Under the pieces are notes generated by a model. The model searched no databases. It was not told where the DNA came from and worked only from the letters and a program-made list of their open reading frames with translations. From NCBI RefSeq assembly GCF_021246445.1, contig NZ_JAJQXW010000001.1:124001-188000 (forward strand): a DNA stretch of 64,000 bases, read 5' to 3'. Origin of the DNA: Rhabdothermincola salaria (GTDB lineage Bacteria; Actinomycetota; Acidimicrobiia; Acidimicrobiales; Acidimicrobilacustridaceae). Shown here one piece after another: positions 210 to 23,301 of this stretch. Within the stretch, counting starts at the first letter, position 1; the number at the start of each line of letters is the position of its first letter. The translations under genes and the position numbers were made by a program.

Positions 210-290
210 CCGTCGGCTCGGGCCCCGGCTGCGAGTGGAGGCGCGGGTACGGCCCGTCACCGGGGCGAGGCGGGGCGGTACCGTGCGCCC

Positions 291-1694
291 ATGGGTGACG
301 TCGAGGAGCAGGGCGCGGCGATCTTCGATCTCGATCGCACGTTGTTGCGCGGCGCCAGCGGCCCCGTCATCTCGGCGTCGCTGCGGGCCGCGGGGCTGCT
401 GCCCGATCGCTCGGTGCCGGGCGAGGGGCTGCTCTTCGGGTTGTTCGACCTGGTCGGTGAGATCCGTCCGTCGATGATGCTCACCCGCCAGGCGGTCAAG
501 GCGGCCAAGGGGTGGGACCGCGAGGTCGTGCGGGAGGCGGGACGGCAGGCGGCGGAGCGCCTGGCCGACGAGGTCCAACCGTGGGCCCGCGTCATCATCG
601 ACGACCACCAGCGCGACGGTCGCCCGGTGGTGCTGGCCACCACCACGCCCTACGACCTCGTGGAGCCCCTGGCCACCATGTTGGGGTTCGACGCCATCGT
701 CGCCACCCGGTACCGGGTCGACGAGACGGGGTGCTACGACGGGACCTTCGACGGCGAGTTCGTGTGGGGGAAGGGCAAGTTGGCGGCGGTCACCGCTTGG
801 GCCGGCGAGAACGGCATCGCCCTGCGCGAGTGCTGGGCCTACTCCGACAGCTTCTACGACCGGCCCCTGCTCGACGCGGTGGGCCAGCCCGTCGCCGTCA
901 ACCCCGACCCTCGCCTGGCCGCCTACGCGGTGCTACGTCGCTGGCCGGTGCAGTTCCTCGACGCCCCACCGGGCGTGCCCAAGGTGCTGGGCATCGAGCC
1001 ACAGACCGCCGCCTTCCCCTTCCTGCGCAACGAGCTCATGCCCTGGGTGCGCTTCGAGGTGATGGGCACCGAGCACATCCCCGAGCACGGGCCGGCGCTG
1101 CTGTGCTCCAACCACCGCAGCTACTTCGACCCTCTGGCGGTGGGGTACGCGGCTGCCCGCCGCGGCCGCCCCATCCGCTTCCTGGGCAAGAAGGAGGTGT
1201 TCGACGCGCCGGTGGTGGGTGATCTGGCCCGGGCGATGGGGGGCATCCGGGTCGAACGGGGGACGGGTTCCGACGAGCCGCTGCTCGAGGCCGCCGACTG
1301 CCTGCGGGCGGGCGAGATCGTGGCCATCCTCCCGCAGGGGACCATCCCCCGGGGCCTCAACTTCTTCGACCCGGTGCTGCGGGGCAAGTGGGGCGCCGCC
1401 CGCCTGGCGGCGGAGATGGCGGAGGAGGGGCGACCCGTGGCGGTCGTCCCCATGGGGCTGTGGGGCACCGAGAAGGTCTGGCCCCGCAACGCCCGGCTGC
1501 CCAACCTGCTCAACGTCTTCGACCCGCCGACCGTGCGGGTGCAGCTCGGCCCGCCGGTCGAGCTGGGCCTCCACGACCCGGCAGCGGACACCGAGGCGAT
1601 CATGGCGGCCATCGTCGACCTCCTGCCCCCCGAGGCCCGGGAGCGCCACGAGCCCACGCCGGGCGAGCTGGCCCGCTCTCTGCCCCCGGCCTGA
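291..1694 (+). CDS. HAD-IB phosphatase / 1-acyl-sn-glycerol-3-phosphate acyltransferase fusion (mycobacterial PlsC-like)
   Basis: N-terminal FDLDRT HAD motif I, YSDSFYD and AVNPD; C-terminal NHRSYFD (HX4D) and PQGT acyltransferase motifs; TACCGT-6nt-ATG leaderless start. Confidence 0.9.
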   Translation: MGDVEEQGAAIFDLDRTLLRGASGPVISASLRAAGLLPDRSVPGEGLLFGLFDLVGEIRPSMMLTRQAVKAAKGWDREVVREAGRQAAERLADEVQPWARVIIDDHQRDGRPVVLATTTPYDLVEPLATMLGFDAIVATRYRVDETGCYDGTFDGEFVWGKGKLAAVTAWAGENGIALRECWAYSDSFYDRPLLDAVGQPVAVNPDPRLAAYAVLRRWPVQFLDAPPGVPKVLGIEPQTAAFPFLRNELMPWVRFEVMGTEHIPEHGPALLCSNHRSYFDPLAVGYAAARRGRPIRFLGKKEVFDAPVVGDLARAMGGIRVERGTGSDEPLLEAADCLRAGEIVAILPQGTIPRGLNFFDPVLRGKWGAARLAAEMAEEGRPVAVVPMGLWGTEKVWPRNARLPNLLNVFDPPTVRVQLGPPVELGLHDPAADTEAIMAAIVDLLPPEARERHEPTPGELARSLPPA

Positions 1695-10827: not shown

Positions 10828-12576
10828 TCAGCCGGTGAAGGCTGGGACGAGCGGTGCCGTCGCGGGAGTGGCACCCGCCCCGACGGCGAGGACCACCGTG
10901 GTGACCTCACCAGTGCCGTAGTGGTCGGCCGCCACGTAGGTGAAGCGGTCGTCGCCGACGAAGCCGTCGGCCGGGCGGTAGGTGAAGCTCCCGTCGGAAC
11001 GCAGCTCGAGGGTTCCGTGGGCCGGCGGGTCGACCATGCGGGCGGTGATGCCGTCGGCGGGTACGACGAGGCGGAGGTCGTCGCCCTCGGCCACGGCGTG
11101 GGGCCCGTCGGCGGCGCCGGCCGCCCCCAGCAGGACAGGGTCGGTGCCGGTGTCGTTGGCCAACACCCCTGGGGCGGGCACGTCGGTGGCGCCGACCACG
11201 TCGAAGCGGTCGGCGCTGCTCTGCGGGCGCACCGTCACCAACTGGTCCTGGAGGATCACGTTGGGCTCGCCGTCGGCGTTCTTGCCGGTGCCCCGCACAC
11301 AGGTGCCGCTCCTGGGATCCCCGTCGTTCCACACCTGGGTCAGGCAGTTGCGCAGGGCCAGCTGAGCCCAGTAGTCGGGATGCAGCGACTCCTGCTGGAA
11401 GTGGGAGGTGCCGGCGGTGTTGATGTAGATCATGTTGACCCACTCGGTCCGGTCGACGGCGTCCGCTTGCGTCCACGACGTCACCCCTCCGGCCTGGAGC
11501 TGGTCGACGCCCGTCTCGCACAGCCGCCGACCCGTGAGCAGGGGGCTCAGCTCCAGCGTGACGATGTCACCACCGGCCTCGGCCACGGCCGCGCGCACGG
11601 TGCTGTTGACCACGCCGAGCACGTCGTTGACCATCCAGTTGGCGTCGGTGTCCCAGAACCCGCAGCCACCGGTGGTCTGACGGGTGTAGCCGGACTCGGA
11701 GTAGCGGAAGTTGCTCCCGTAGGGGAGAGGCTGGGGGTAGGTCTGCACCACGAGTGTGTAGTCGCCCTCGGCGTGACCGGCGGCGTCCATGGCGGTGCGG
11801 ATGTTGGCGATGGCACCGACGATCTTGCCCTGCACCTCCTCGGCCGCGGTCGCGGAGACCTTGGCCCGCTGGGCGGCGTCGGTGTGGCAGGTGTAGGTGG
11901 CGAAGACGTTGGAGGAGAGGAAGTCCTCGACACAGGCGGTGGCGATGCCGGACACGTCGAAGTCGTTGCCGCCGATGGACAGCACGATCAGCCCCACGTC
12001 CTCGCCGGCGGCGAACTCCTGGAGCATGAGGGCCTGGCCCTTGTTCCCCTTACCGTCGTCGTAGAAGTCGATGCCGGGCTTGAAGGCGTCGGTCAGGTAC
12101 CCGTTGGACCAGTAGGTGTTGGTCTGGGCGCCGCTGCAGGCCAGGTTGAGGGTGTTGAGCCCGGTGGCGGCGCCGTCGTCGCGGATGTGGACCTCGGCGG
12201 ACTTGGAGCGGTGGCAGAGGGGGATCAGCTCGCCGGTGTCGGTGGGGTTGTCGAAGTAGGCGGTGGGTCCGAGGGCATCGTTGGCGCTCTCGGGCAGGGT
12301 GGAGGTGTTGCCGGCCCAGCGGCCGGCTTCGCCCGAGATGTAGGAGTCACCCAGCGAGATGATCCACGGCTCTCCGTTCGCCGGCGCCGCCGACCCGTCC
12401 GGTGACGGGCTCGAGGTCGAGGTCGTGGCGCTCTCGGAGCGCGGGTCGTCCGTCGACGTCTGGGCGGCGGCCACCCCGGCGAAGGGTGCCGTCACGACGG
12501 CGATCAGCGCCGCTGCCACCGCGACGACGCCGAGTCGTCGGCGGGTGGGTGCGGAGGGCGGCAGGGTTCGAGGCAT
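10828..12576 (-). CDS. Secreted SGNH/GDSL (SEST-like) hydrolase with C-terminal Ig/cadherin-like (Big_9/tandem-95) domain
   Basis: Signal peptide (RRR + hydrophobic + AAA/Q), SLGDSYISG, NLACSGA, SIGGND, ESLHP; GVLAND...PAHGTLELRSDGSFTYRP...GDDRFTY; ends VPAFTG. Confidence 0.8.
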   Translation of the reverse strand: MPRTLPPSAPTRRRLGVVAVAAALIAVVTAPFAGVAAAQTSTDDPRSESATTSTSSPSPDGSAAPANGEPWIISLGDSYISGEAGRWAGNTSTLPESANDALGPTAYFDNPTDTGELIPLCHRSKSAEVHIRDDGAATGLNTLNLACSGAQTNTYWSNGYLTDAFKPGIDFYDDGKGNKGQALMLQEFAAGEDVGLIVLSIGGNDFDVSGIATACVEDFLSSNVFATYTCHTDAAQRAKVSATAAEEVQGKIVGAIANIRTAMDAAGHAEGDYTLVVQTYPQPLPYGSNFRYSESGYTRQTTGGCGFWDTDANWMVNDVLGVVNSTVRAAVAEAGGDIVTLELSPLLTGRRLCETGVDQLQAGGVTSWTQADAVDRTEWVNMIYINTAGTSHFQQESLHPDYWAQLALRNCLTQVWNDGDPRSGTCVRGTGKNADGEPNVILQDQLVTVRPQSSADRFDVVGATDVPAPGVLANDTGTDPVLLGAAGAADGPHAVAEGDDLRLVVPADGITARMVDPPAHGTLELRSDGSFTYRPADGFVGDDRFTYVAADHYGTGEVTTVVLAVGAGATPATAPLVPAFTG

Positions 12577-12661
12577 CGATGGCTCCCGGGACGTGGACCC
12601 GTCGATCTTGTCAGCTCGCCCGGTGGGGCGGACGGCAAGGTCTGGCTTGGCGCGGGGTGGG

Positions 12662-13702
12662 TCAGACCTCGGGCCAGGCGCGACGGGGCCGGCGCCGGCC
12701 GCCTCGTCGGTCGCCGAGGGCCCACGTGCGGCGCCATGCCCCGACACCCGGACCCTGCAGCGACGGGGTCTCCCCGGCCGCGGCCCGCTTGCGGGCCTGC
12801 CACCAGTCGCTGCCGGCCTCGTCGGCCAGAGCGGCCACGGCTCGTTCGATGCGCACCGCCATGTTGCGGGAGTCGTCGTCGGGCCCGGGCACGATGGGGT
12901 CGCCGAAGGTGACGGTGGTGGGGGTGGGGCGGGGCACGTTCTTGCCCTTGCGCAGGATGCGCCCGGTGCCTTCGAGGTGGACGGGCACCACGGGCACCCG
13001 GCAGCGGATGGCCAGGTAGGCGGCGCCGCCGCGGAAGGCCTGGCCCCACCCGTCGGGGGAGCGTCCGCCCTCCGGGAAGATGAGCATGCTCCACCCGTCG
13101 TCGATCAGCTCGGCCGCCTGGTCGGCGGACGTGCGGGTCACCTTGGTGCGCTCGATCGGGATGGCGCCGATGACCAGGGCCGACAGGGTGGAGGTGACCC
13201 GGTTGCCGAAGAAGTAGTCGGCGGCCGCGCCGATGAAGAGGTGGTGCCGCCACGGTTCGGGGATGACCGACAGCATCAGGGGGGTGTCGACGTGGCTGTG
13301 GTGGTTGGCGGCGAAGACCACCGGTCCGTCGAGGTCGGCGAGGCGGTCGGTGCCCTTGACGGTGGGGGTGGCCAGCAGGTCCATGGTGGGACGCACGACG
13401 CCCTCGACCAGCAGGACCCGGGCGGCGCGGGCCGGATAGGACCGGGCCCACTCGGTGTCGTAGGCGGCGCCCACCTTGCTCTCGGCCGGAGGCACCTCGA
13501 CCCCTGCCGGCACCGTGGGAGCGCGGAGGGGCGCCGGCAGGGCGCGTCCCAGGGCGGCTGCGCCGGCGCGCCCGGCCGTGCCCGCCGCAGTGCGGTTCAC
13601 CGGGAGGCGCTTGACGAGCTCGACGGCCTGGGACCGCGTGATCGGCATGCGCCGACCGGTCCAGTCTCCGAGGCCACCGTTGCCGGTGCTGTGACGGCTC
13701 AT
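12662..13702 (-). CDS. Lysophospholipid/glycerolipid acyltransferase (PlsC family)
   Basis: ANHHSHVD (HX4D), IFPEGGRS, PVVPV motifs. Confidence 0.9.
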   Translation of the reverse strand: MSRHSTGNGGLGDWTGRRMPITRSQAVELVKRLPVNRTAAGTAGRAGAAALGRALPAPLRAPTVPAGVEVPPAESKVGAAYDTEWARSYPARAARVLLVEGVVRPTMDLLATPTVKGTDRLADLDGPVVFAANHHSHVDTPLMLSVIPEPWRHHLFIGAAADYFFGNRVTSTLSALVIGAIPIERTKVTRTSADQAAELIDDGWSMLIFPEGGRSPDGWGQAFRGGAAYLAIRCRVPVVPVHLEGTGRILRKGKNVPRPTPTTVTFGDPIVPGPDDDSRNMAVRIERAVAALADEAGSDWWQARKRAAAGETPSLQGPGVGAWRRTWALGDRRGGRRRPRRAWPEV

Positions 13703-13715
13703 GATCTCGCCGGCC

Positions 13716-15311
13716 TCAGGTGACGTCGGCCATGAGGATGGGCGGGTTGTGCAGGTGGGTGATGGAGGCGTCGGGACCGACGACGTCGCTCGCCATCTCC
13801 AGAGCGTCCTGCAGAGTGCTGGCCGGCTTGAACCCCAACCGGCGCACGGCCCGGACATCGCCGCCGACGATGATCACCTGCCCCACGTGCTGGAGTGCGT
13901 GCGCGCACCAGTACCACATGTAGAAGGGGTGCACGCCGTGGTAGGCGTAGCTGGTGCGGTAGAGGTGGCGGTACCACTCGTCCTCCGCGAAGCCCTTCTC
14001 GAACTCGGCCTCGATGCGCACCGGGTCGGTGGTCTCGGCCAGCACCTGCTCGAAGAAGTCGATGTAGCTCGGGTGGTGCACCGGGTGGAACTCCCACGGC
14101 GTCGGGTGGCTCATGACGACCACGCCACCCTCTCGCACCGGAGGCTTGCCCCGGTAGAGGTTGAAGAAGTACCCGAGCCCGAGGCACGCCACCAGGATCG
14201 GGTTGAGGATGGAGTTCACGTTGTAGGGGCTGATGTAGGGCAGCCCCATGGTGAGGATGTCGGTCTGGCCCTCCACCGGCACCAGGTGCTGCTTGTAGAC
14301 GTTCTCGGTGGTGAGCTCGTGGACGGCCTCGACCTCGCCGGCCTGCACCGACGTCATGGCGTGGGGAGCCTGCCAGCTCTGGAAGACCGAACGGCGGGTG
14401 CGCTGGGGCATGCGGTCGAGGCCGGCCTTCATGGCGGCGAAGGAGATGCGGTCCTTGGCGTTCCACTCCCATTCGCGCTTCTGCAGCACGCTCATGGGCC
14501 CCTCGGTGCCGAAGACGTTGTTGTTCATGGTCGTCTCGACCTGGAAGACCTTGACGCCGGAGTCCTTGAGCACCTTGCCCATGCGCCAGTTCGAGGAGTG
14601 CAGCTCGGAGGCGTGGCGGTCCATGAAGGACTTGGAGTGCCGCATGGTCTTGACGTTGTGGTGGTGGCGCAGGCTGCGGTAGCTGGCCAGGCCGGTGGCA
14701 GTGGACTTCCAGCCGCCGTCCATGGAGACGAGGTTGATGTTGACGTAGACGATGAGGTCGCTGGTGGCGGCCCGCTTGTTGATCTCGACCTCTTCGCCCT
14801 GGTCGGTGGTGCCGAGGTACTCGAGGTTGTCGGGGTCCTCGGCGTCGTGGTTGACGAGCAGGCCGTGAGGGGCGAAGGCGTCGTAGACCCGGTCGCCCAC
14901 GGCGTGGCGCAGCTCGGCTTCGGTCATGCGCCGGTGCAGGGCCAGGGCGGCGATCAGCATGACGTCGTCGACGCCGGCCTCCGCGGCCAGGTCGAGCACC
15001 GCCTCGATGACCCGCTGGCGGATGTCGGGCCGCTTCATGGGCGGCAGCGGCAAGGAGATGTCGTCGAAGGCGATGGTGAGCTTCATGCCCGGCGTGAGCA
15101 GGGCGGGAAGCGGCTCGCTGTCGCCGAGGGGGTTGAGCAGGGCGTGCCGGATGGCGGCGTCGGGGTGCTCGAGCGCCTCGATGGGCTCGGCCGGGTAGAG
15201 CACCCGGCTGCGCCCGGCGGGCAGCTTCTCGAGCCGGAACCCCTCGCCGTGGTGGAAGAGGATCGGCGGCGTCGAACGATCGACGTCGAGCACGAAGCCT
15301 GGTCTAGGCAC
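13716..15311 (-). CDS. Lactate racemase (LarA/DUF2088) domain-containing protein, divergent
   Basis: ALLNPLG, TIAFDDIS, ALALHRRMT, NHD, GGWKS LarA-like motifs; GTG start overlaps the upstream stop. Confidence 0.78.
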   Translation of the reverse strand: MPRPGFVLDVDRSTPPILFHHGEGFRLEKLPAGRSRVLYPAEPIEALEHPDAAIRHALLNPLGDSEPLPALLTPGMKLTIAFDDISLPLPPMKRPDIRQRVIEAVLDLAAEAGVDDVMLIAALALHRRMTEAELRHAVGDRVYDAFAPHGLLVNHDAEDPDNLEYLGTTDQGEEVEINKRAATSDLIVYVNINLVSMDGGWKSTATGLASYRSLRHHHNVKTMRHSKSFMDRHASELHSSNWRMGKVLKDSGVKVFQVETTMNNNVFGTEGPMSVLQKREWEWNAKDRISFAAMKAGLDRMPQRTRRSVFQSWQAPHAMTSVQAGEVEAVHELTTENVYKQHLVPVEGQTDILTMGLPYISPYNVNSILNPILVACLGLGYFFNLYRGKPPVREGGVVVMSHPTPWEFHPVHHPSYIDFFEQVLAETTDPVRIEAEFEKGFAEDEWYRHLYRTSYAYHGVHPFYMWYWCAHALQHVGQVIIVGGDVRAVRRLGFKPASTLQDALEMASDVVGPDASITHLHNPPILMADVT

Positions 15312-16521
15312 GGTTGCGTTCCTTCTCGTTGCGGAGGTCGAAGGCGATGCGCACGGCCCCTCGGGGGCCGGCGGACGCGGCGTGGGCGATGGCGTCGGTG
15401 AAGCGGGCCAACGGGTACGTGGCGCTGACCAGCCGACCGAGGTCGGCGGCGTCGACCAGGTCGAAGGCCAGGTCGAAGGTGCGGTGGCGGGCGCCGTCGG
15501 CGAGGACCTCGGTGCCGTAGGCGTAGGCCCCGGCCAGGGTGATCTCGCGCTGCCACAGGCCGGTGAGGTCGACCTGGGTGTGGCCGGGCATGCCCACCAT
15601 GGTGATGCGGCCCCGGGGGCGCACCACGGCGAGGGCTTGGGCGAGGGAGGTGTCGTTGCCCACGCAGTCGATGACCACGTCGGCGCCCCCGGTGAGGCGC
15701 ACGATGTCGCCGTCACCGATCGCCATGGTGCCGGTGGCCCGCCGCACGGCCCGGGCGATCTCTCCGGGAGCCACGACGGTGTGGGCGCCGAGCTGGGCGG
15801 CCAGGTCGCGCTGCACGGGGTGCTTGGCCACGGCCAGCACCGTGCAGGCGGGGGCGAAGCGGGTCAGGGCGGCGATGGTCAGCAGGCCGAGGGCTCCGGC
15901 GCCGAGGACCACCACGAGATCTCCTTCGCGGACCTGGGCGGCCAGGGCACCGTGCACCGCACAGGCCGTGGGCTCGACCATGACCGCGGCTTCGTCGCTC
16001 CAGTGCGCGGGTACGGCGTGCAGCTGGCTGGCGTGGGCGACCATGCGGGTGGACCAGCCACCCCCGGTGTCGCAGCAGAACCCGGTCTGCAACCCGGGTT
16101 CGATGGCCCCGAAGGCGATGCGCTCGCAGTTGCCGAGGTCGCCGCGGGCGCAGGCGTCGCAGACGGGGTCGATGCCGCGGGTGACGCAGCCGAGGACGGG
16201 CTCCACCACGACGCGGCCGGCGGGCACCTCGCCCACGGCCTCGTCGAGGTCGGCGACGACCTCGTGGCCGGGCACGAACGGGAACGAGACGATGGGCTCG
16301 AAGTAGCGCGAGCTGTGACCGTCGATGGTGGCCAGGTCGGATCCGCAGATGCCGGCCAGTCGGGGCTTGATCTCGGTCCAGTCGGAGCCGGGCGGCTCGG
16401 GCGGGTCGACGGAGCGCAACCGCAGGGGTCCGACCTTGGCGCCGGCGCCTCCGGCCAGCCGTCCGGCGACGGCCGCCGCCGCGAAGCGGGGCACGTTGCG
16501 TTCGAAGCGGAGGGCCTTCAC
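15304..16521 (-). CDS. Zinc-binding (MDR) alcohol/polyol dehydrogenase
   Basis: GICGSD, PGHE, structural Cys cluster C..C..C..C, VEPTAC, GAGALG Rossmann motif. Confidence 0.92.
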   Translation of the reverse strand: MKALRFERNVPRFAAAAVAGRLAGGAGAKVGPLRLRSVDPPEPPGSDWTEIKPRLAGICGSDLATIDGHSSRYFEPIVSFPFVPGHEVVADLDEAVGEVPAGRVVVEPVLGCVTRGIDPVCDACARGDLGNCERIAFGAIEPGLQTGFCCDTGGGWSTRMVAHASQLHAVPAHWSDEAAVMVEPTACAVHGALAAQVREGDLVVVLGAGALGLLTIAALTRFAPACTVLAVAKHPVQRDLAAQLGAHTVVAPGEIARAVRRATGTMAIGDGDIVRLTGGADVVIDCVGNDTSLAQALAVVRPRGRITMVGMPGHTQVDLTGLWQREITLAGAYAYGTEVLADGARHRTFDLAFDLVDAADLGRLVSATYPLARFTDAIAHAASAGPRGAVRIAFDLRNEKERNRA

Positions 16522-18881
16522 GCCGTGCCTCCGGGGACCAGTGGGTTGGCCAGCCCGCCGTGTCGGGTGCGACGGGGGCCGATGGGCACGAGGCGTCGGG
16601 GAGCGCCCGGGGCCTTGGCGAAGTGCTCGACCAGCCAGCCCCGCTTGCGGGCCAGGGCGGCCAGGCGGGTCTCGGGGTTGACGGCGACCGGGAAGCCCGC
16701 CGCCTCGAGCATGGGCAGGTCGCTGGTGGAATCGGCGTAGGCGACGGTCTCGGACAGGTCGAGGCCGTGGGCGGCGGCGTAGTCCATGAGCACCTGCGCC
16801 CGGCTCTCGCCGGTGGGGGGCACGTCGGTCAGCTCACCGTCGTAGGCGCCGTGGCGCACGCCCATCTCGGCGGCCACGATGTCGTCGAAGAGAGGGGTCA
16901 GCGGCTTGACCACGAAGTCGAGGGCGCCGGTGATCAACACCGTGCGGTGGCCCGCCGCCCGGTGCTCACGCACCCGCCGGATGGCTGCGGGGAACGACTT
17001 GGCGATGATGAGTCGACTGAACATCTCGGCGGCGTCCTCGTCGATCTGCTGCACCGGGGCGCCGTCGTAGCGCCGGTAGAAGAAGCGCAGGAAGTCGCTG
17101 CGGTCGGCTCGGTCGAGGCTGAGCAGCGACGGCCCCTCGGCGAGCAGGGATGCGGCGAAGCGCAGGCGCTCGTCGCGAGGCATGCGGCGGGTGGCGAGGT
17201 AGGCGTAGCTGGCCACCACGTTGGAGGCGATGAGGGTGTTCTCGAGGTCGAAGGCGGCCAGCTGGCGCTCGGGGGCCAGCACCTGGGCGCGCAGGCGCTC
17301 GGAGCGGCTGGGGCCGGTGCGGCCGCCGGGGGTGGTGCGCACCCGGGCCTGTTGGACGACCGAGGGGAGGAAGATGTCGGTGGTGAAGGAGTCCCACTCG
17401 ATGACGCGAGGGTCGAAGCAGAAGTCGCGTCGGTCGTCGTCGGTCTGGTCGTCCCACAGGGCGAGGAGCCGGTCGAGGCCGTAGACCGCCTCGCACTCGG
17501 CGTAGGCGCCGTAGAGCTCGACGTAGCCGAGGGCCTGCTCGGCCTCCTCGCGCTTGGACTCGAGCGAGGCGCTCCACTCGGCCTGCTTGCCTCGCAGGGG
17601 GAGCTGGGCCAGCACGCTCTCGGCTCGTTCGAGGGTCTTCTGGGCCCGTTGGAGCTGGCCCTGCACCCGACCCCGCCCCGGGAACGACCACTTGGCGACC
17701 ACGATGGGCTGGCCCTTGGGGTCGTAGAGGGGGTGCTCGAGGAACCAGTCCGAGACCAGGTCGACGAGGCGGCGGTAGTGCAAGGGGTTCTGCGAGCCCG
17801 AGGCGACCTGGACGACCTCGATGTCGGGCTCGGGCCCCTTGGCGGCGACCGCGATGATGGCGGCGCTGACCAGGTCGACGGGGATGACGTCGACGATGCC
17901 CTCGGGAACGCCGGGGAACTCCTTGAGCAGGCCGCGGGCGTAGCTGATGATGACCGGGTCGGCCATGCGGAAGCCGCGGATCCAGCCCGGGCGGGGTTCG
18001 GCCAGGGCGGTCTCGATGATGGAGGGCCGCACGATGCTGACGGGCACGTCGCCGCGGTTCTCGTTGAGGGCCAGCTCGCCGAGGGCCTTGGTGTAGGCGT
18101 AGGCGTCGGGCCAGCCGAGCGACGCAGCGCGGGCCCGCCCGGCTTCGACCATGCGGTCGCCGACCCACCGGCTGCGCAGCTGCTCGGTCTTGTCGGACAG
18201 CAGGGGGCTGCCGGCGGCACCGAGCTCGCGGCGGGCCCGGGCCCGGAACTCGGCGAGCTTCTCGGGGGTGCGGCTCTGGGCCTCGGCGTCGCTGCGGGCC
18301 CGGCGGGCCCCCTCGACCTCCTTGCGCCAGTCGACGTCGACGAAGAAGGGGCTCTCGTCGACGAGCTGCTCGGGGGCCGAGCCCCGTCGGTTGCCGGCCA
18401 CGTAGCAGGTGGACACCGCCACCAGGTGAGGTGCCACCCCCATCTCGTTGAGCACGGCGGCGATGCGGCTGGGGCCGAGCAGGTTCACCTCGACGGCGCT
18501 GTCGAGGGGGGAGTCGAAGCTGACGGTGGCGGCCGAGTGGATGACGACGTCGCAGCCGGCGAGCAGGGCGCGTCCGGCCTCGTCGAGCCCGAGGCCGTCG
18601 CGGCCGACGTCGCCGGCGACGGCGGTGATGCGCCGAGCGGTCATCTCGGCGAAGCCGTCCTTGCCGAGCTCGCCCCGGAGGCGGTCGAAGGCGTCGTTCT
18701 TCAGGATCTCGCGGGCCACACGCTGCTCGATCGAGGAGCGCTTGCCCGGTCGCACCAGCAGCACGAGCTCGCAGTCCGGCACGCTGCGCAGGAGCCGCTC
18801 GAGCAGGTTGGTGCCGAGGAACCCGGTGGTACCGGTGATGAAGAGGCGCTTTCCGGCCAGGGCCGCAGGAATCACCGTCAT
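16518..18881 (-). CDS. Fatty acyl-CoA reductase (NAD_binding_4/male-sterility) fused to HAD-IB hydrolase
   Basis: ITGTTGFLG, IHSAATVSF, VSTCYV, YAYTK (YxxxK), IVRPSII, DVIPVD; C-terminal FDLENT, ITG, YADSTSD, AVNP. Confidence 0.9.
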   Translation of the reverse strand: MTVIPAALAGKRLFITGTTGFLGTNLLERLLRSVPDCELVLLVRPGKRSSIEQRVAREILKNDAFDRLRGELGKDGFAEMTARRITAVAGDVGRDGLGLDEAGRALLAGCDVVIHSAATVSFDSPLDSAVEVNLLGPSRIAAVLNEMGVAPHLVAVSTCYVAGNRRGSAPEQLVDESPFFVDVDWRKEVEGARRARSDAEAQSRTPEKLAEFRARARRELGAAGSPLLSDKTEQLRSRWVGDRMVEAGRARAASLGWPDAYAYTKALGELALNENRGDVPVSIVRPSIIETALAEPRPGWIRGFRMADPVIISYARGLLKEFPGVPEGIVDVIPVDLVSAAIIAVAAKGPEPDIEVVQVASGSQNPLHYRRLVDLVSDWFLEHPLYDPKGQPIVVAKWSFPGRGRVQGQLQRAQKTLERAESVLAQLPLRGKQAEWSASLESKREEAEQALGYVELYGAYAECEAVYGLDRLLALWDDQTDDDRRDFCFDPRVIEWDSFTTDIFLPSVVQQARVRTTPGGRTGPSRSERLRAQVLAPERQLAAFDLENTLIASNVVASYAYLATRRMPRDERLRFAASLLAEGPSLLSLDRADRSDFLRFFYRRYDGAPVQQIDEDAAEMFSRLIIAKSFPAAIRRVREHRAAGHRTVLITGALDFVVKPLTPLFDDIVAAEMGVRHGAYDGELTDVPPTGESRAQVLMDYAAAHGLDLSETVAYADSTSDLPMLEAAGFPVAVNPETRLAALARKRGWLVEHFAKAPGAPRRLVPIGPRRTRHGGLANPLVPGGTA

Positions 18882-18882
18882 T

Positions 18883-18915
18883 GTCTACCACTTGGTAAGT
18901 GAGGGGGTCTACCAT
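18883..18915. promoter_or_regulatory. Candidate TetR operator and leaderless -10 box in the divergent promoter
   Basis: Palindrome TACCA-CT-TGGTA (18886-18897); GTCTACCA at 18883 and 18907; TACCAT-7nt-GTG. Confidence 0.55.
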
Positions 18916-18922
18916 CGCCCTC

Positions 18923-19558
18923 GTGGCGACCACGGTGGAGCCGGCCCGCGCCGGTGGGACTCGAGCGGAGAGGGCCCGCCTCACCGATGATCGCATCCTC
19001 GCGGCGGCGCTGCAGTCGTTCGGCACCAAGGGCTACGACGCCACCTCCCTCGACCAGCTGGCGGCCGAGCTCGGTGTCACCAAGCAGACGATCCTCTACC
19101 ACCACCCGTCGAAGGCGGCCCTCCTCGACGCCGTGATCGACCGGGCGTCGGCCGACCTCGTCGCCACCTTCGACGCCGCTCTGGCCGCCGCCGGTCCCGG
19201 GTGGGAACGCGTCGAGACCGTGGTGCGGTCCGTGTTCCGGCTGGCCCTGCGCCGCCCCGAGCTCCTGGGCCTGCTGCGCGAGGTGAGCCGGCTCGGCCCT
19301 CCGGCCGCCACCCGGGTCGCCGCCAACCTCGACGTCCTGGTGCACCGGGCCCGGGCGTTCCTCGAATCCGAGATGGACGCCGGCCACGTGCGCCGCAGCG
19401 ACCCGAACCTGCTGTTGGTGTCGGCCTACTCCACCGTGATCGGCGTGGCCACCGAGGTCGAGGTGCTGCGGGCAGTGGGCATCGAGCCCACCCTGCGCAC
19501 CACCGTCAAGCGCCGCCAGGAGCTGCTCGCCTTCCTCCGCTCGGCGCTGGTGCCGTGA
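18923..19558 (+). CDS. TetR/AcrR family transcriptional regulator
   Basis: ILAAALQSFGTKGYDATSLDQLAAELGVTKQTILYHHPSK HTH; start set at GTG 18923 (alternative 18899). Confidence 0.92.
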   Translation: MATTVEPARAGGTRAERARLTDDRILAAALQSFGTKGYDATSLDQLAAELGVTKQTILYHHPSKAALLDAVIDRASADLVATFDAALAAAGPGWERVETVVRSVFRLALRRPELLGLLREVSRLGPPAATRVAANLDVLVHRARAFLESEMDAGHVRRSDPNLLLVSAYSTVIGVATEVEVLRAVGIEPTLRTTVKRRQELLAFLRSALVP

Positions 19559-19825: not shown

Positions 19826-20680
19826 TCAGGATCGAGTGACGCCAGGTACCTCGACGCGGAGCGCTTCGACCCGACCCCGGCGCTCGGTGATGGTGCGGGC
19901 CGGGTTGGTCGAGGCGCCGGTGCACACGTAGAGGGTGTGCCCGTCGGATCCGCCGAGGGCGCAGCCGTAGGGGGAACGGCCCGGGAACGGGACCCAGGCC
20001 ACCGCCCCCACGCTCTCCACGACGCGCATCACCCCCTCGTTCACCGGGTCCGCCACCCAGAGCGCGCCCTCGACGTCGAGGCACATGCCGTCGGGCACGT
20101 TGGGGCGCAGGTCGGCCCACACCCGGGGGCGGGCGAGGGAGCCGTCGGCCTGCACGTCGTAGGCGGAGATGCGCTGTCCGAACGTCTCGGCCACGAGCAG
20201 GGTGACGCCGTCTGCGCGTTCGAGCACCGCCGCGCCGTTGGGGAACAGCAGGTCCTCGGCCACCACCCAGGCCTCACCGTCGGGCTCGACGCACACCAGG
20301 CGGGCGCCGTCGGGTGCACCGTCGCCGAGAGGGTCGTGGCCGAACTCCCCGATGTAGGCGCGACCGTCGGTGGTGACCGCCATGTCGTTCCACGGGTGCG
20401 CGGCGAAGGCGTCGAGCGCGGCGATCGGCGTGGTGGTGCCGGTGCGGTCGGCGGCCACCAGCGTCCGGTCGTTCATGGACACCACGATCAACGTGCCGTC
20501 GGGCCACCAGCCCAGTCCGGCCGGCCACCCCTCGACCGCCGTGACGGGCTCGCCCTGCCCCTGTTCGGTCATGGCCCACACCCGACCGTCGTGGACGTCG
20601 GAGAACCAGAGCCGGTCGGCGTGCCACCGGGGGAACTTGGGAAAGGCCAGCTGGTCGAGCAAGACCGTCGATCCCGTCAT
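19826..20680 (-). CDS. SMP-30/gluconolactonase/LRE family protein
   Basis: PRWHADRLWFSD, WNDM, FPNG, PDGMCLDVEGALWVA, GGSDGHTLYV beta-propeller motifs; ATGA overlap with ddl. Confidence 0.9.
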   Translation of the reverse strand: MTGSTVLLDQLAFPKFPRWHADRLWFSDVHDGRVWAMTEQGQGEPVTAVEGWPAGLGWWPDGTLIVVSMNDRTLVAADRTGTTTPIAALDAFAAHPWNDMAVTTDGRAYIGEFGHDPLGDGAPDGARLVCVEPDGEAWVVAEDLLFPNGAAVLERADGVTLLVAETFGQRISAYDVQADGSLARPRVWADLRPNVPDGMCLDVEGALWVADPVNEGVMRVVESVGAVAWVPFPGRSPYGCALGGSDGHTLYVCTGASTNPARTITERRGRVEALRVEVPGVTRS

Positions 20681-21843
20681 CGTCGGCGCCGCACCGCCTC
20701 GTGGCGCTCCAGAGCCAGCGCCACCAGCTCGTCGAGCAGCGCCCGGTAGGTGAGCCCGGAGGCGTGCCACAGCCGGGGGAACATCGAGATGGGGGTGAAC
20801 CCGGGGATGGTGTTGACCTCGTTGAGCAACAGGCCCCGCCCCTCGGCCTCGTAGAAGAAGTCGACGCGCGCCATGCCCTCGGCGCGCAGCGCCGTGAACG
20901 CCCGACAGGCGAGGCCGCGGACCTCGTCGGCCACGTCGTCGGGCAGCGGGGCCGGGATCAAGAGCTCGGCGGTGCCGTCGGCGTACTTGTCGTCGTAGTC
21001 GTAGAAGTCGGCGCCGGGCACGATCTCGCCGGGCACGGAAGCCCGAGGCGACACCGTGTGGCCGAGGACGGCCACCTCGACCTCGCGGCCGTCGACCCCT
21101 TCCTCGACGACCAGCCACTCGTCGTGCTCGAGGGCAGCCACCAGCCCGGCGCGCAGCGACTCGACATCGGTGGCCCGGGACACCCCGATGGAGGAGCCCA
21201 TGTTCGCCGGCTTCACGAACATCGGGAAGCCGAGGTCCTCGACCAGATCGGCCACCACGTCCGCGCCCACGAGATCCGGGAGCGGGATGGGGGACCCCGG
21301 TTCGAGCACCTCGGTGAGGTGCAGGCCCCGCCACCGGGCCTGGGGCAGACCGGCGGCGGTGGCCATCTGCTTGGCGGCGATCTTGTCCATGGCGACGGCC
21401 GAGCCGAGGACACCCGAGCCGACGTAGGGCACCCCCGCGATCTCGAGCAGCCCCTGCACCGTGCCGTCCTCGCCCATGGGACCGTGCAGGAGGGGGAACA
21501 CCACCACGCCCGGGCTCGGCCCGCCCGGACCACCCGACGGGCCGTCGGTGGGGGCCGGGGCCAGCATCGGCAAGGGGTCGACGGTGGGACCGTCGATGAC
21601 CAAGGCGTCGGGCAGCCGCTCGGCGAGGGTCTCGGCTCCGGCCAGCAGGGCCGAGACCGCGGCCTCGGCCAGCACCCACTCGCCCCCCCGGGTGATGCCG
21701 ACGGGCACGACGTCGAAGCGCTCGTGGTCGAGCGCGGCCAGGACGTGGCGAGCGGTGACGCGAGAGACGTCGTGCTCGGCCGACTGCCCTCCGAACAGCA
21801 CCACCAGCCGAGGGCGGGCACCGGGCGAGGAGCGAGCGGGCAT
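20677..21843 (-). CDS. ddl: D-alanine--D-alanine ligase
   Basis: LFGGQSAEHDVS, FPLLHGPMGEDG, MDK, FVKPANMGSSIG, FYDYDDKY, NEVNTIPGFT. Confidence 0.96.
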   Translation of the reverse strand: MPARSSPGARPRLVVLFGGQSAEHDVSRVTARHVLAALDHERFDVVPVGITRGGEWVLAEAAVSALLAGAETLAERLPDALVIDGPTVDPLPMLAPAPTDGPSGGPGGPSPGVVVFPLLHGPMGEDGTVQGLLEIAGVPYVGSGVLGSAVAMDKIAAKQMATAAGLPQARWRGLHLTEVLEPGSPIPLPDLVGADVVADLVEDLGFPMFVKPANMGSSIGVSRATDVESLRAGLVAALEHDEWLVVEEGVDGREVEVAVLGHTVSPRASVPGEIVPGADFYDYDDKYADGTAELLIPAPLPDDVADEVRGLACRAFTALRAEGMARVDFFYEAEGRGLLLNEVNTIPGFTPISMFPRLWHASGLTYRALLDELVALALERHEAVRRRR

Positions 21844-21918
21844 GGCGCCGAACGTAGTCCTCCCCGGTGCCGACGGGGGCCGGTCCGGCGCCTCGTGCCG
21901 TCTCGGTACGGTGGCGAG

Positions 21919-23223
21919 GTGGAGTTCACCGCATCCGAGATCGCTCGCGTCGTCGGCGGCACCCTGGTCGGACCCGACGTCGAGGTCGACGGGGCCGGCA
22001 TCGACACGCGCACCCTCGGCGCCGGGCAGCTCTTCGTCCCGGTGGTGGGGGACCGCGACGGACACGACTTCATCCCCGCCGCCGTCGAGCGAGGTGCTGC
22101 GGCCGTCCTCACCTCGAGGGCGCCCCAGCCCGGCGTGGCCAGCATCGTCGTCGCCGATGCCGTCGAGGCCCTCACCGCGCTCGGTGGCCATGCCCGCGGG
22201 CGTCTGCCGGACCGGGTGGTGGGCATCACCGGGTCGGTCGGCAAGACCTCCACCAAGGACCTCGCGGCGGCCGCTCTCGGTCGCCGCTACGTGGTGGCGG
22301 CCAGCGAGAAGAGCTTCAACAACGAGCTGGGGGTGCCCCTCACGCTGATCAACGCCCCGAACGACACCGAGGTGGCGGTGATCGAGATGGGGGCGCGGGG
22401 GCACGGCCACATCGAAGCCCTCTGCCGGGTCGCCCGTCCCACCATCGCCGTGGTCACCGCGGTGGAGCTGGTGCACGCCGAAGGGATGGGGGGTCTCGAC
22501 GAGATCGCCCGGGCCAAGGGCGAGCTGCCGGCTTCCCTGCCTGCCGACGGGGTGGCGGTGCTGAACGCGGCCTACGACCGGGTGACGGCCATGGCGGCGC
22601 GCACCACGGCTCGGGTGGTCCGCTACGGGATCGGTACCGGTGAGGTGCGGGCGAGCGACGTCGCCGTCGACGACGAGCTGCGGGCCTCGTTCCTCCTCGA
22701 GTCCGAGTGGGGATCGGCGCGGGTGCGCCTCGGCGTGCGCGGCGAGCACCACGTGGGCAACGCCCTGGCGGCCGCGGCCGTGGCCCTGGTGAGCGACGTG
22801 CCCGTGGACGAGGTGGCCGAGGGCCTGGCCGAGGGGGCCCTGTCGCCGTGGCGCATGGAGCTGTCCACCGCACCCGGCGGCGCCCGCGTCCTCAACGACG
22901 CCTACAACGCCGGGCCGGCGTCGGTGGCTGCCGCGCTGCGGGCCCTGGCCCGCCTGGCCGCCGAGCGCCGCCACGCCGTGCTCGGTCCCATGGCCGAGCT
23001 CGGTGCCGAGGGCCCCGAGGAGCACCGCCGCATCGCCGCCCTGGCCGACGACCTCGGCATCGAGGTGGTGGCCTTCCAGACCGACGCCTACGGCCGGCCC
23101 CCGGTGTCCGACGTCCCCCAGGCCCTGGCCGCCCTGGGGGAGCTGGGACCCGGCGACGCCGTGCTGGTCAAGGGCAGCCGCGTCGCCGGGCTCGAGAAGG
23201 TGGCCGAGGCCATCCTGGGCTGA
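21919..23223 (+). CDS. murF: UDP-N-acetylmuramoyl-tripeptide--D-alanyl-D-alanine ligase
   Basis: DGHDF, GITGSVGKTSTK, SFNNELGVPLT, EMG, NDAYNA, LGPMAELG, VKGSR. Confidence 0.95.
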   Translation: MEFTASEIARVVGGTLVGPDVEVDGAGIDTRTLGAGQLFVPVVGDRDGHDFIPAAVERGAAAVLTSRAPQPGVASIVVADAVEALTALGGHARGRLPDRVVGITGSVGKTSTKDLAAAALGRRYVVAASEKSFNNELGVPLTLINAPNDTEVAVIEMGARGHGHIEALCRVARPTIAVVTAVELVHAEGMGGLDEIARAKGELPASLPADGVAVLNAAYDRVTAMAARTTARVVRYGIGTGEVRASDVAVDDELRASFLLESEWGSARVRLGVRGEHHVGNALAAAAVALVSDVPVDEVAEGLAEGALSPWRMELSTAPGGARVLNDAYNAGPASVAAALRALARLAAERRHAVLGPMAELGAEGPEEHRRIAALADDLGIEVVAFQTDAYGRPPVSDVPQALAALGELGPGDAVLVKGSRVAGLEKVAEAILG

Positions 23224-23301
23224 GGGGCGACGGCCAGAGCGGCTCCCGGTGCTCGTCGCCGTCGGCCACACTGGTGGCCGGCGAGAGGCGGTGGGGGTTC
23301 C

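Follow-up and report, generated by a model that had tools for sequence, protein, structure and literature searches.

Which lipid does a compact operon of the actinobacterium Rhabdothermincola salaria produce, and which of its enzymes could form an ether bond? The operon and its divergent TetR-family regulator occupy positions 12662 to 19558 of the stretch analyzed here (i.e., positions 124,001 to 188,000 of contig NZ_JAJQXW010000001.1; 64,000 nucleotides; 72% G+C), which we call the window and to which all positions refer unless another locus is named. The host genome comprises 3.9 Mb in seven contigs, and the closest named relatives found by the locus search are metagenome-assembled genomes of Acidimicrobiales and Microthrixaceae. 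On the basis of sequence comparisons, we lean with modest confidence toward the view that the operon represents a pared-down actinobacterial form of the elb genes of myxobacteria, kept under TetR repression, and that it directs the synthesis of alkyl-glycerol ether lipids independently of alkylglycerone-phosphate synthase (AGPS). The narrower idea that its LarA homolog (i.e., a protein of the ElbC type) is the ether-bond-forming enzyme of aerobic bacteria, acting without AGPS by means of a borrowed hydride, is a tentative proposal that we hold to be possible and rather doubtful.

A first-pass annotation, made from the letters of the window and their open reading frames (ORFs), had described four coupled minus-strand genes divergent from a TetR gene, and we found all five genes where it had placed them. 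In the order of transcription, the four genes encode a fusion of a fatty acyl-coenzyme A (CoA)/acyl carrier protein (ACP) reductase (FAR) with a HAD phosphatase (787 amino acids; 16518 to 18881), a zinc-dependent medium-chain dehydrogenase/reductase (Zn-MDR; 405 amino acids; 15304 to 16521), the LarA homolog (531 amino acids; 13716 to 15311), and an acyltransferase of the PlsC/1-acylglycerol-3-phosphate acyltransferase (AGPAT) type (346 amino acids; 12662 to 13702). The junctions likewise agree with that description: FAR-HAD and Zn-MDR overlap by 4 bp (16518 to 16521), Zn-MDR and the LarA homolog overlap by 8 bp (GTGCCTAG; 15304 to 15311; an AAGGA-type purine run lies upstream), and a 13-bp gap separates the stop of the LarA homolog (13716) from the ATG of the acyltransferase (13702). 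Judging by its orthologs, the FAR-HAD protein may start at GTG 18875 instead of ATG 18881.

The LarA homolog belongs to the LarA superfamily, as indicated by its Lar_N domain (PF09861; 130.2 bits; cutoff, 23.3) and by a whole-protein score above the curated cutoff of NCBIfam NF052592 (i.e., the "LarAH14/15/16 family"; 889.9 bits; cutoff, 740). The top fold matches of its AlphaFold2 model (pLDDT, 95.5; pTM, 0.93) were 9q3k and 9q3j (TM, 0.78/0.86), which, together with 9q2u, were also its best sequence matches (E, 1e-34). In an alignment with Isosphaera pallida LarA (9eia), D84 corresponds to the ribose-binding Asp, K202 to the Lys that tethers the nickel-pincer nucleotide (NPN), and H218 to the nickel-ligand His; K202 is also aligned with the tether Lys of 9q2u. 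H126 aligns with the first catalytic His (His108 of L. plantarum LarA). Asn193 stands where L. plantarum LarA has its second catalytic His (His174), and Leu87 aligns with the LarA Arg (Arg75/Arg73) to which the substrate carboxylate and the NPN phosphate bind; the canonical pair of His residues is incomplete, and the canonical Arg is missing. D84, H126, K202, and H218 do not vary in any of 120 close relatives or of 118 relatives of the myxobacterial type, while N193 is conserved in 119 and 116 of them, respectively. A conserved cluster of His residues (H402, H413, H458, and H461) lies in the C-terminal part. Taken together, the residue and profile evidence therefore indicates a LarA-superfamily member without two of the features by which two-base racemases of hydroxy acids are defined. 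Another tier of LarA homologs (L107 to L109; families f36 and f29) is 43% identical to the window enzyme and scores approximately 527 bits on NF052592, below the cutoff. We rejected these proteins as members of the same system: they keep the cofactor residues, are flanked by CoA-transferase III and AMP-binding genes, and probably act on a different substrate.

The genes for NPN synthesis, i.e., larC (435.1 bits), larB (226.5 bits; cutoff, 175), and larE (297.9 bits; cutoff, 150), are all encoded in the host genome. Since the operon gene is the sole Lar_N gene that a profile search detected there, no client of the NPN pathway other than its product is visible in this genome. Within the order to which the host belongs, the LarA homolog and LarC are jointly present in 17 sampled genomes besides the host and jointly missing in 5. 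The full-length FAR-HAD protein follows the same pattern, being present in 11 and missing in 3 of the 14 genomes of the order (host included) in the class sample. At the phylum level, a LarA homolog above the NF052592 cutoff was found in 98 of 401 sampled genomes, a tally that takes in four genomes flagged as unpublished (G088, G226, G148, and G318), and LarC was detected in 87 of these 98 carriers compared with 190 of the 303 noncarriers. Candidate carriers available in culture include Ilumatobacter coccineum, Acidimicrobium ferrooxidans, Kribbella flavida, Frankia spp., Salinilacustrithrix flava, and Aquihabitans.

The nearest characterized gene set is the elb operon of Myxococcus xanthus, in which ElbB is a HAD protein, ElbC has no assigned function, ElbD combines FAR, acyl-CoA synthetase, ACP, and AGPAT domains, and ElbA and ElbE are of the NAD-epimerase type (PMC9131029). 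According to the same review, alkyl ether lipids require ElbD and probably ElbE, the AGPS gene MXAN_1676 contributes little, i15:0 aldehyde but no fatty alcohol was detected in M. xanthus, and it is not known by which steps a fatty acid becomes an alkyl ether lipid. The elbD gene is MXAN_1528 (PMC11980068), and MXAN_1529 is assigned to LarAH group 15, whose tabulated neighbors are COG0451 (150%), COG0560 (100%), and COG1022 (75%) (PMC7583248 supplement). These neighbors match ElbA/ElbE, ElbB, and ElbD, respectively, and MXAN_1529 adjoins elbD; ElbC is therefore a LarA homolog, and we infer that elbC is MXAN_1529.

For the comparison with elb-type DNA, 80 metagenome loci gathered with a Myxococcales-type family member as bait stood in for M. 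xanthus DNA, and the link between the window and elb thus rests on the locus tags of two papers together with these loci. A HAD gene was found in 52 of the 80 loci (directly upstream of the LarA homolog in 48), a FAR match in 46 (directly downstream in 41), and an acyltransferase match in 24; of the 38 loci that span 9 kb or more, 18 have the complete order HAD, LarA homolog, FAR, and acyltransferase. Approximately 2.1 kb lies between the FAR match and the acyltransferase match, and two annotated loci carry the NAD_binding_4, AMP-binding, PP-binding, and Acyltransferase domains in a single ORF (Pfam). The LarA homologs of the ElbD-bearing loci exceed the NF052592 cutoff (759.6 to 834.8 bits). 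With queries from these loci (L110 and L182 for the ElbD-type domains), the FAR domain of the operon was the only match in the host genome to two ElbD-type FAR domains (tblastn; E, ≤1e-4; 192 and 176 bits), the HAD domain was the top match to an ElbB-type protein (100 bits versus 90.1 bits for the next), and the acyltransferase was the top match to two ElbD-type acyltransferase domains (94.7 and 89.0 bits versus 80.5 and 77.4 bits). A tblastn search with the window proteins finds elb-type loci too. The reciprocal searches against elb genes for which the first-pass annotation had called are thus positive with metagenome elb-type loci, and they support its proposed kinship to ElbD, whose FAR and AGPAT domains are both represented in the operon as separate proteins. 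Neither an AMP-binding nor a PP-binding domain was detected in the five proteins of the operon region (Pfam), and the AMP-binding matches of the genome are unlinked. Judged by these matches, the operon is a rearranged, split core of the Myxococcus elb gene set.

The FAR domain (residues 1 to 520; 17322 to 18881) comprises an NAD_binding_4 match (residues 15 to 342; 196.4 bits) and a weak Sterile match (residues 454 to 504; E, 1.6e-4) and is 26 to 47% identical to the ElbD-type FAR domains of the metagenome loci. The HAD-IB phosphatase domain (residues approximately 541 to 787; 16518 to 17261) was identified with PF12710 (104.6 bits) and TIGR01490 (106.1 bits; cutoff, 98.3). The Zn-MDR (ADH_N and ADH_zinc_N in Pfam) has ketose reductase, xylitol, sorbitol, and arabinitol dehydrogenases, and threonine 3-dehydrogenase as its closest solved relatives; it is of the polyol/ketose-reductase type and is proposed to be a 2-keto reductase. 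The translated acyltransferase (PF01553; 70.1 bits) shows the H-x4-D motif (NHHSHVD) and FPEGGRS.

The first-pass annotation had called for a survey of the gene neighborhood across Actinomycetota, and the genes proved to stay together in 80 Acidimicrobiales-type loci, gathered with the window LarA homolog as bait (two carry other taxon labels), and in 17 further loci (one each from 17 published genomes representing 15 families of the 401-genome sample). In tblastn searches of the 80 loci, the acyltransferase was found in 78, HAD in 77, FAR in 74, TetR in 55, and MDR in 44, with some of the misses caused by contig ends. In the phylum-wide set, FAR, HAD, MDR, and the LarA homolog are adjacent in 17 of 17 loci, the acyltransferase is linked in 15, and a TetR ortholog stands at one or the other end of the operon in 9. 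Because the gene order recurs in the 80 loci and in the 17 loci from other families, the arrangement is not due to chance. Where MDR is absent from the operon, a full-length copy (55 to 59% identical) was found elsewhere in five of five complete genomes examined. These unlinked copies and the linkage counts together indicate that the four functions are retained jointly at the level of the genome. In two of the four places examined, a gene for a DAO-type FAD oxidoreductase comes after the relocated MDR gene (L191, 6133 to 7590; L193, 6237 to 7586). An operon without a linked MDR gene is also found in loci L033 and L036 of "Candidatus Poriferisocius", a genus whose name suggests an association with sponges.

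In two loci of family f24 without an adjacent PlsC-type gene, FAR-HAD has as its immediate neighbor the gene for PlsY, a glycerol-3-phosphate acyltransferase (L097, 15536 to 16135; L098, 13208 to 13900). Other operon neighbors were seen at single loci, i.e., LarC (Ni_insertion; L094, 4763 to 5542), a CDP-alcohol phosphatidyltransferase (L101, 13439 to 14161), and a YhhN protein of the lysoplasmalogenase family (L095, 14146 to 14781). PlsY and the CDP-alcohol phosphatidyltransferase, as neighbors, point to glycerophospholipid chemistry. The gene association is already in print in an uninterpreted form: among the eight proteins of LarAH group 14, which takes in members from Acidimicrobium, Ilumatobacter, Frankia, and Kribbella, the neighbors include COG0204 (7/8), COG0560 (7/8), COG1063 (7/8), and COG3320 (4/8), and the group is filed there as of "unknown function" (PMC7583248 and its supplement; Desguin et al., 2020).

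The operon is probably under the control of its divergent neighbor. The TetR-family gene (18899 to 19558, plus strand; TetR_N, 56.3 bits; TetR_C_24, E of 4.1e-5; Pfam) is separated from FAR-HAD by a region containing the perfect palindrome TACCACTTGGTA (5-2-5; 18886 to 18897), which we take as the candidate operator. Of 52 regions between TetR and FAR at related loci, 49 have a palindrome of the type TACC-N3-5-GGTA (12-mers of the form TACCNNNNGGTA), and the remaining 3 bear TGACCAnnTGGTA variants. A slightly stricter pattern, TACC[A/T]NN[A/T]GGTA, occurs at only three sites across the 3.9-Mb genome, the other two being C1:1901705 and C5:153483. The helix-turn-helix of TetR_N and an inverted repeat conserved at the divergent promoter, both features of the regulator family, are present, and the binding of TetR at TACCAnnTGGTA would gate the operon. 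The TetR start (GTG 18899) sits just 1 bp beyond the operator, and the true start may lie further downstream.

These parts can be arranged into a pathway of which the homology and the cofactor-type active site are observed and the remaining mechanism is what we infer from them. The FAR domain would turn acyl-CoA or acyl-ACP into a fatty aldehyde. The LarA homolog, equipped with NPN (made by LarB, LarC, and LarE) and a single catalytic His, would take the C2 hydride from a glycerol-phosphate acceptor and return it to the hemiacetal or oxocarbenium of the aldehyde, yielding 1-O-alkyl-dihydroxyacetone phosphate (i.e., a borrowed-hydride etherification). The MDR with NAD(P)H would then reduce the 2-keto group, the AGPAT-type acyltransferase would acylate the sn-2 position, and the HAD domain would strip the phosphate for head-group or neutral-lipid synthesis. 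In a variant implied by the first-pass annotation, lysophosphatidate may be oxidized transiently before an acyl-to-alkyl exchange. The scheme, in our analysis, fits the detection of an aldehyde but no alcohol in M. xanthus, the requirement for a separate reductase (ElbE in M. xanthus and the retained MDR in the window), and, as far as the alignments indicate, the loss of the carboxylate-binding residues and the single acid-base residue of the LarA homolog. A CarF/PEDS1-type desaturase (PF10520) was not found in the genome by a search that had no positive control and is weak; the products expected would therefore be saturated alkyl (plasmanyl) lipids and not plasmalogens. A YhhN gene (lysoplasmalogenase family) is present elsewhere in the genome, unlinked; the family is common.

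The first-pass annotation had also read the locus as an ether-lipid pathway, and the outcome for that interpretation is mixed. Its ether-lipid direction, its placement of the LarA-like protein in the unexplained slot, and its appeal to ElbD are supported by the best matches within the host genome and by MXAN_1529 being a LarA homolog. Its step-by-step mapping onto the eukaryotic pathway, in which a dihydroxyacetone phosphate (DHAP) acyltransferase is followed by the acyl-to-alkyl exchange of AGPS, is not supported, since the nearest system (Elb) is largely AGPS free and has a fatty aldehyde, not an alcohol, as its detected intermediate (PMC9131029). No flavoenzyme or FAD-oxidase domain of the AGPS type was detected in the five proteins of the operon region (Pfam), the AGPS search not having been extended to the rest of the genome.

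Several observations weigh against an elb-type ether-lipid pathway driven by NPN. The chemistry assigned to the LarA homolog is conjectural, and the literature searched, including full-text searches on Acidimicrobi*, contains no report of ether lipids from carriers. Regarding the cofactor, 11 of the 98 carriers have no LarC; 9 of these belong to family f27 and include near-complete genomes. The five near-complete f27 genomes tested (G014, G387, G183, G321, and G116) also have no LarB above the cutoff, bear the full four-gene operon, and, in the one f27 LarA homolog checked (L099, from G014), keep every key residue. NPN dependence is therefore not universal, or carriers of this kind make NPN by another route. 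Within the operon, motif I of the HAD domain reads D-L-E-N-T, with the nucleophilic Asp kept and Glu at the Asp+2 position; motif IV (DSxxD) is kept. The D-L-E-N-T form is found in 72 of 76 Acidimicrobiales HAD copies and D-L-E-H-T in the other 4, while the ElbB-type copies have DxDGT. The best match to ElbE in the genome reached just 46 bits and is unlinked, and the window TetR shows no detectable relationship beyond the helix-turn-helix to the TetR beside the elb-type locus L182, which places the regulator outside the shared ancestry. Published results point the same way. The M. xanthus mutants described in PMC9131029 concern elbA, elbB, elbD, and elbE only, not ElbC; some of the elb-like clusters in a sponge ether-lipid preprint consist of elbD and elbB only, without elbC; and Pontiella has ElbD homologs with no ether lipids detected (PMC11868695). 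An NPN-loaded group 14 enzyme from Frankia was inactive in seven racemase/epimerase assays (PMC7583248), a result that is uninformative on lipid substrates and lends the pathway no positive support.

Part of this evidence would suit a product without an ether bond. Wax-type products require no more than a FAR and an acyltransferase, and the ElbD FAR queries retrieved no FAR-type reductase from the genome besides that of the operon. This FAR might then supply an alcohol that the acyltransferase esterifies, with the LarA homolog and MDR tailoring a hydroxylated acceptor, so that the end product is a wax-type ester, an acylated long-chain diol, or a fatty-alcohol phosphate or glycolipid. The missing reports of ether lipids from carriers in the literature searched, as well as Pontiella with its ElbD homologs and undetected ether lipids (PMC11868695), agree with such an outcome. 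We nevertheless consider it unlikely, since it leaves unexplained the strict linkage to the LarA homolog and the HAD phosphatase, and since the PlsY and CDP-alcohol transferase neighbors point to glycerophospholipid chemistry. Known wax synthases, moreover, are of the WS/DGAT type, whereas the operon acyltransferase is of the PlsC/AGPAT type and is the best match to the ElbD AGPAT domain.

A different role for the LarA homolog, i.e., that of an isomerase acting on a small phosphorylated polyol or hydroxy acid (a glycerol phosphate, triose, or glycerate derivative) for an unusual backbone or head group, seems to us improbable to a similar degree. In such a pathway, the product would be oxidized or reduced by MDR, freed of phosphate by HAD, and acylated by the acyltransferase, and FAR would have a side role. 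The NCBIfam name of the family is hydroxyacid isomerase, MDR is of the polyol-dehydrogenase type, and the closest solved single-His enzymes adjoin glycolytic/triose-phosphate genes and have been modeled with a phosphorylated linear ligand (PMC12611868). However, the carboxylate/phosphate-binding Arg of LarA is replaced by Leu in the window enzyme, the Frankia member showed no activity with gluconate or with the hydroxy acids tested (PMC7583248), and neither the FAR-HAD fusion nor the recurrence of the same set in ElbD-type loci is accounted for. Ordinary remodeling of phospholipids or storage lipids by lysophosphatidate acylation and phosphatidate phosphatase, with the LarA homolog as a noncatalytic or cofactor-free accessory, is less probable still. 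It can draw on the abundance of HAD-plus-acyltransferase pairs in the genome (e.g., the fused one at 210 to 1694) and on the nine f27 carriers without LarC, of which the five tested also have no LarB. It has no need for FAR, and it is difficult to reconcile with the LarA homolog being the best conserved of the set (72 to 89% identical across the 80 Acidimicrobiales-type loci versus 47 to 69% for the acyltransferase), with the invariance of its cofactor and catalytic residues, and with the exact co-occurrence of the homolog and LarC in the order of the host.

Among the genes around the operon, a 639-amino-acid ORF just downstream of the acyltransferase (10828 to 12747, minus strand) has an N terminus that looks like a signal peptide, a GDS(Y)-type motif, and, toward the C terminus, Big_9/cadherin-like domains; this presumed secreted protein was dropped as an operon member, being conserved in 0 of the 80 Acidimicrobiales loci. 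Near the start of the window, a 494-amino-acid ORF (210 to 1694, plus strand) fuses a HAD domain (PF12710; 94.8 bits) to a PlsC-type acyltransferase (84.8 bits). It is the second-best match of the ElbB-type HAD in the host genome, and its architecture resembles what we take to be that of mycobacterial HAD-PlsC fusions. Beyond TetR, the region from 19826 to 23271 contains a SMP-30/gluconolactonase-like gene, a D-Ala-D-Ala ligase gene (minus strand), a Mur ligase gene (plus strand), and a penicillin-binding protein gene, and the long overlapping ORFs within it are artifacts of the high G+C content.

What is new here, on the sequence evidence, is that ElbC is an NPN-type LarA homolog and that the actinobacterial operon is a split elb variant. 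A link between LarA or the nickel-pincer cofactor and elb or ether lipids was not found in the literature searched, whose reach did not extend to Lorenzen 2014 and the bioRxiv supplements. With its strict linkage to FAR, HAD, and AGPAT in two distant phyla, ElbC as an NPN-type enzyme is a concrete candidate for the unsolved ether-bond step in aerobic bacteria, and the operon offers a minimal four-gene set for testing that step. If the proposal is true, nickel-pincer chemistry would reach beyond hydroxy-acid racemization, an NPN enzyme would for the first time be seen to act on a lipid and to catalyze something other than racemization or epimerization, and 1-O-alkyl-DHAP would be formed in one redox-neutral step. 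Acidimicrobiia and many Actinomycetota would then be unrecognized environmental sources of alkylglycerol ethers, including lineages that live with sponges, such as "Candidatus Poriferisocius" (L033 and L036). With the LarA homolog above the cutoff in 98 of the 401 sampled genomes of the phylum, the operon also bears on the origin of non-isoprenoid alkylglycerol ether biomarkers. The split actinobacterial form would score poorly in ElbD-based screens. The carriers named by the ElbD/AGPS screen of the sponge preprint belong to other phyla, and Actinobacteria are mentioned there just as sponge symbionts.

Compared with other ether-lipid systems, the operon shares with the peroxisomal FAR1-GNPAT-AGPS pathway and with the AGPS operon of M. 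xanthus (MXAN_1676 to MXAN_1674) the combination of FAR, an acyltransferase, and a ketoreductase-type step, by which those two systems reach 1-O-alkyl glycerolipids. The PlsA/PlsR and Ger enzymes of anaerobes represent an alternative bacterial route; these families are unrelated, and no similarity to them appeared in the domain searches of the window. Among LarA homologs, the group 17 enzymes (9q2u, 9q3k, and 9q3j; Gatreddi et al., 2025) resemble the window enzyme in having Asn at the position of the second catalytic His, and their tether Lys and catalytic His align with those of the window enzyme. They are only 19 to 24% identical to it, carry Lys at the position of the LarA Arg (Leu in the window enzyme), and have glycolytic and sugar genes rather than lipid genes as neighbors (PMC12611868). 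NPN was shown to be bound in one single-His homolog of this group, and the authors, who modeled a phosphorylated linear ligand, think that the group 17 enzymes use phosphorylated substrates that are not acids (PMC12611868). Closer to the window enzyme is Franean1_4168 ("LarAH14") of Frankia, which has the same protein family and the same neighbors and whose signature likewise lacks the second His and the Arg; in their treatment of group 14, Desguin et al. draw no link to lipids (PMC7583248).

The closest parallel remains the elb operon of M. xanthus. Both loci hold a HAD phosphatase, an NF052592-type LarA homolog, a FAR domain, and an AGPAT domain, and the window domains are 26 to 56% identical to those of the elb-type metagenome loci. 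The differences lie in the arrangement and the accessory functions. The window is without the acyl-CoA synthetase and ACP domains of ElbD; its FAR is fused to HAD, whereas that of elb is fused to the acyltransferase; it has a Zn-MDR where elb has the NAD-epimerase-type proteins ElbA and ElbE; and, unlike elb, it has a divergent TetR with its own candidate operator.

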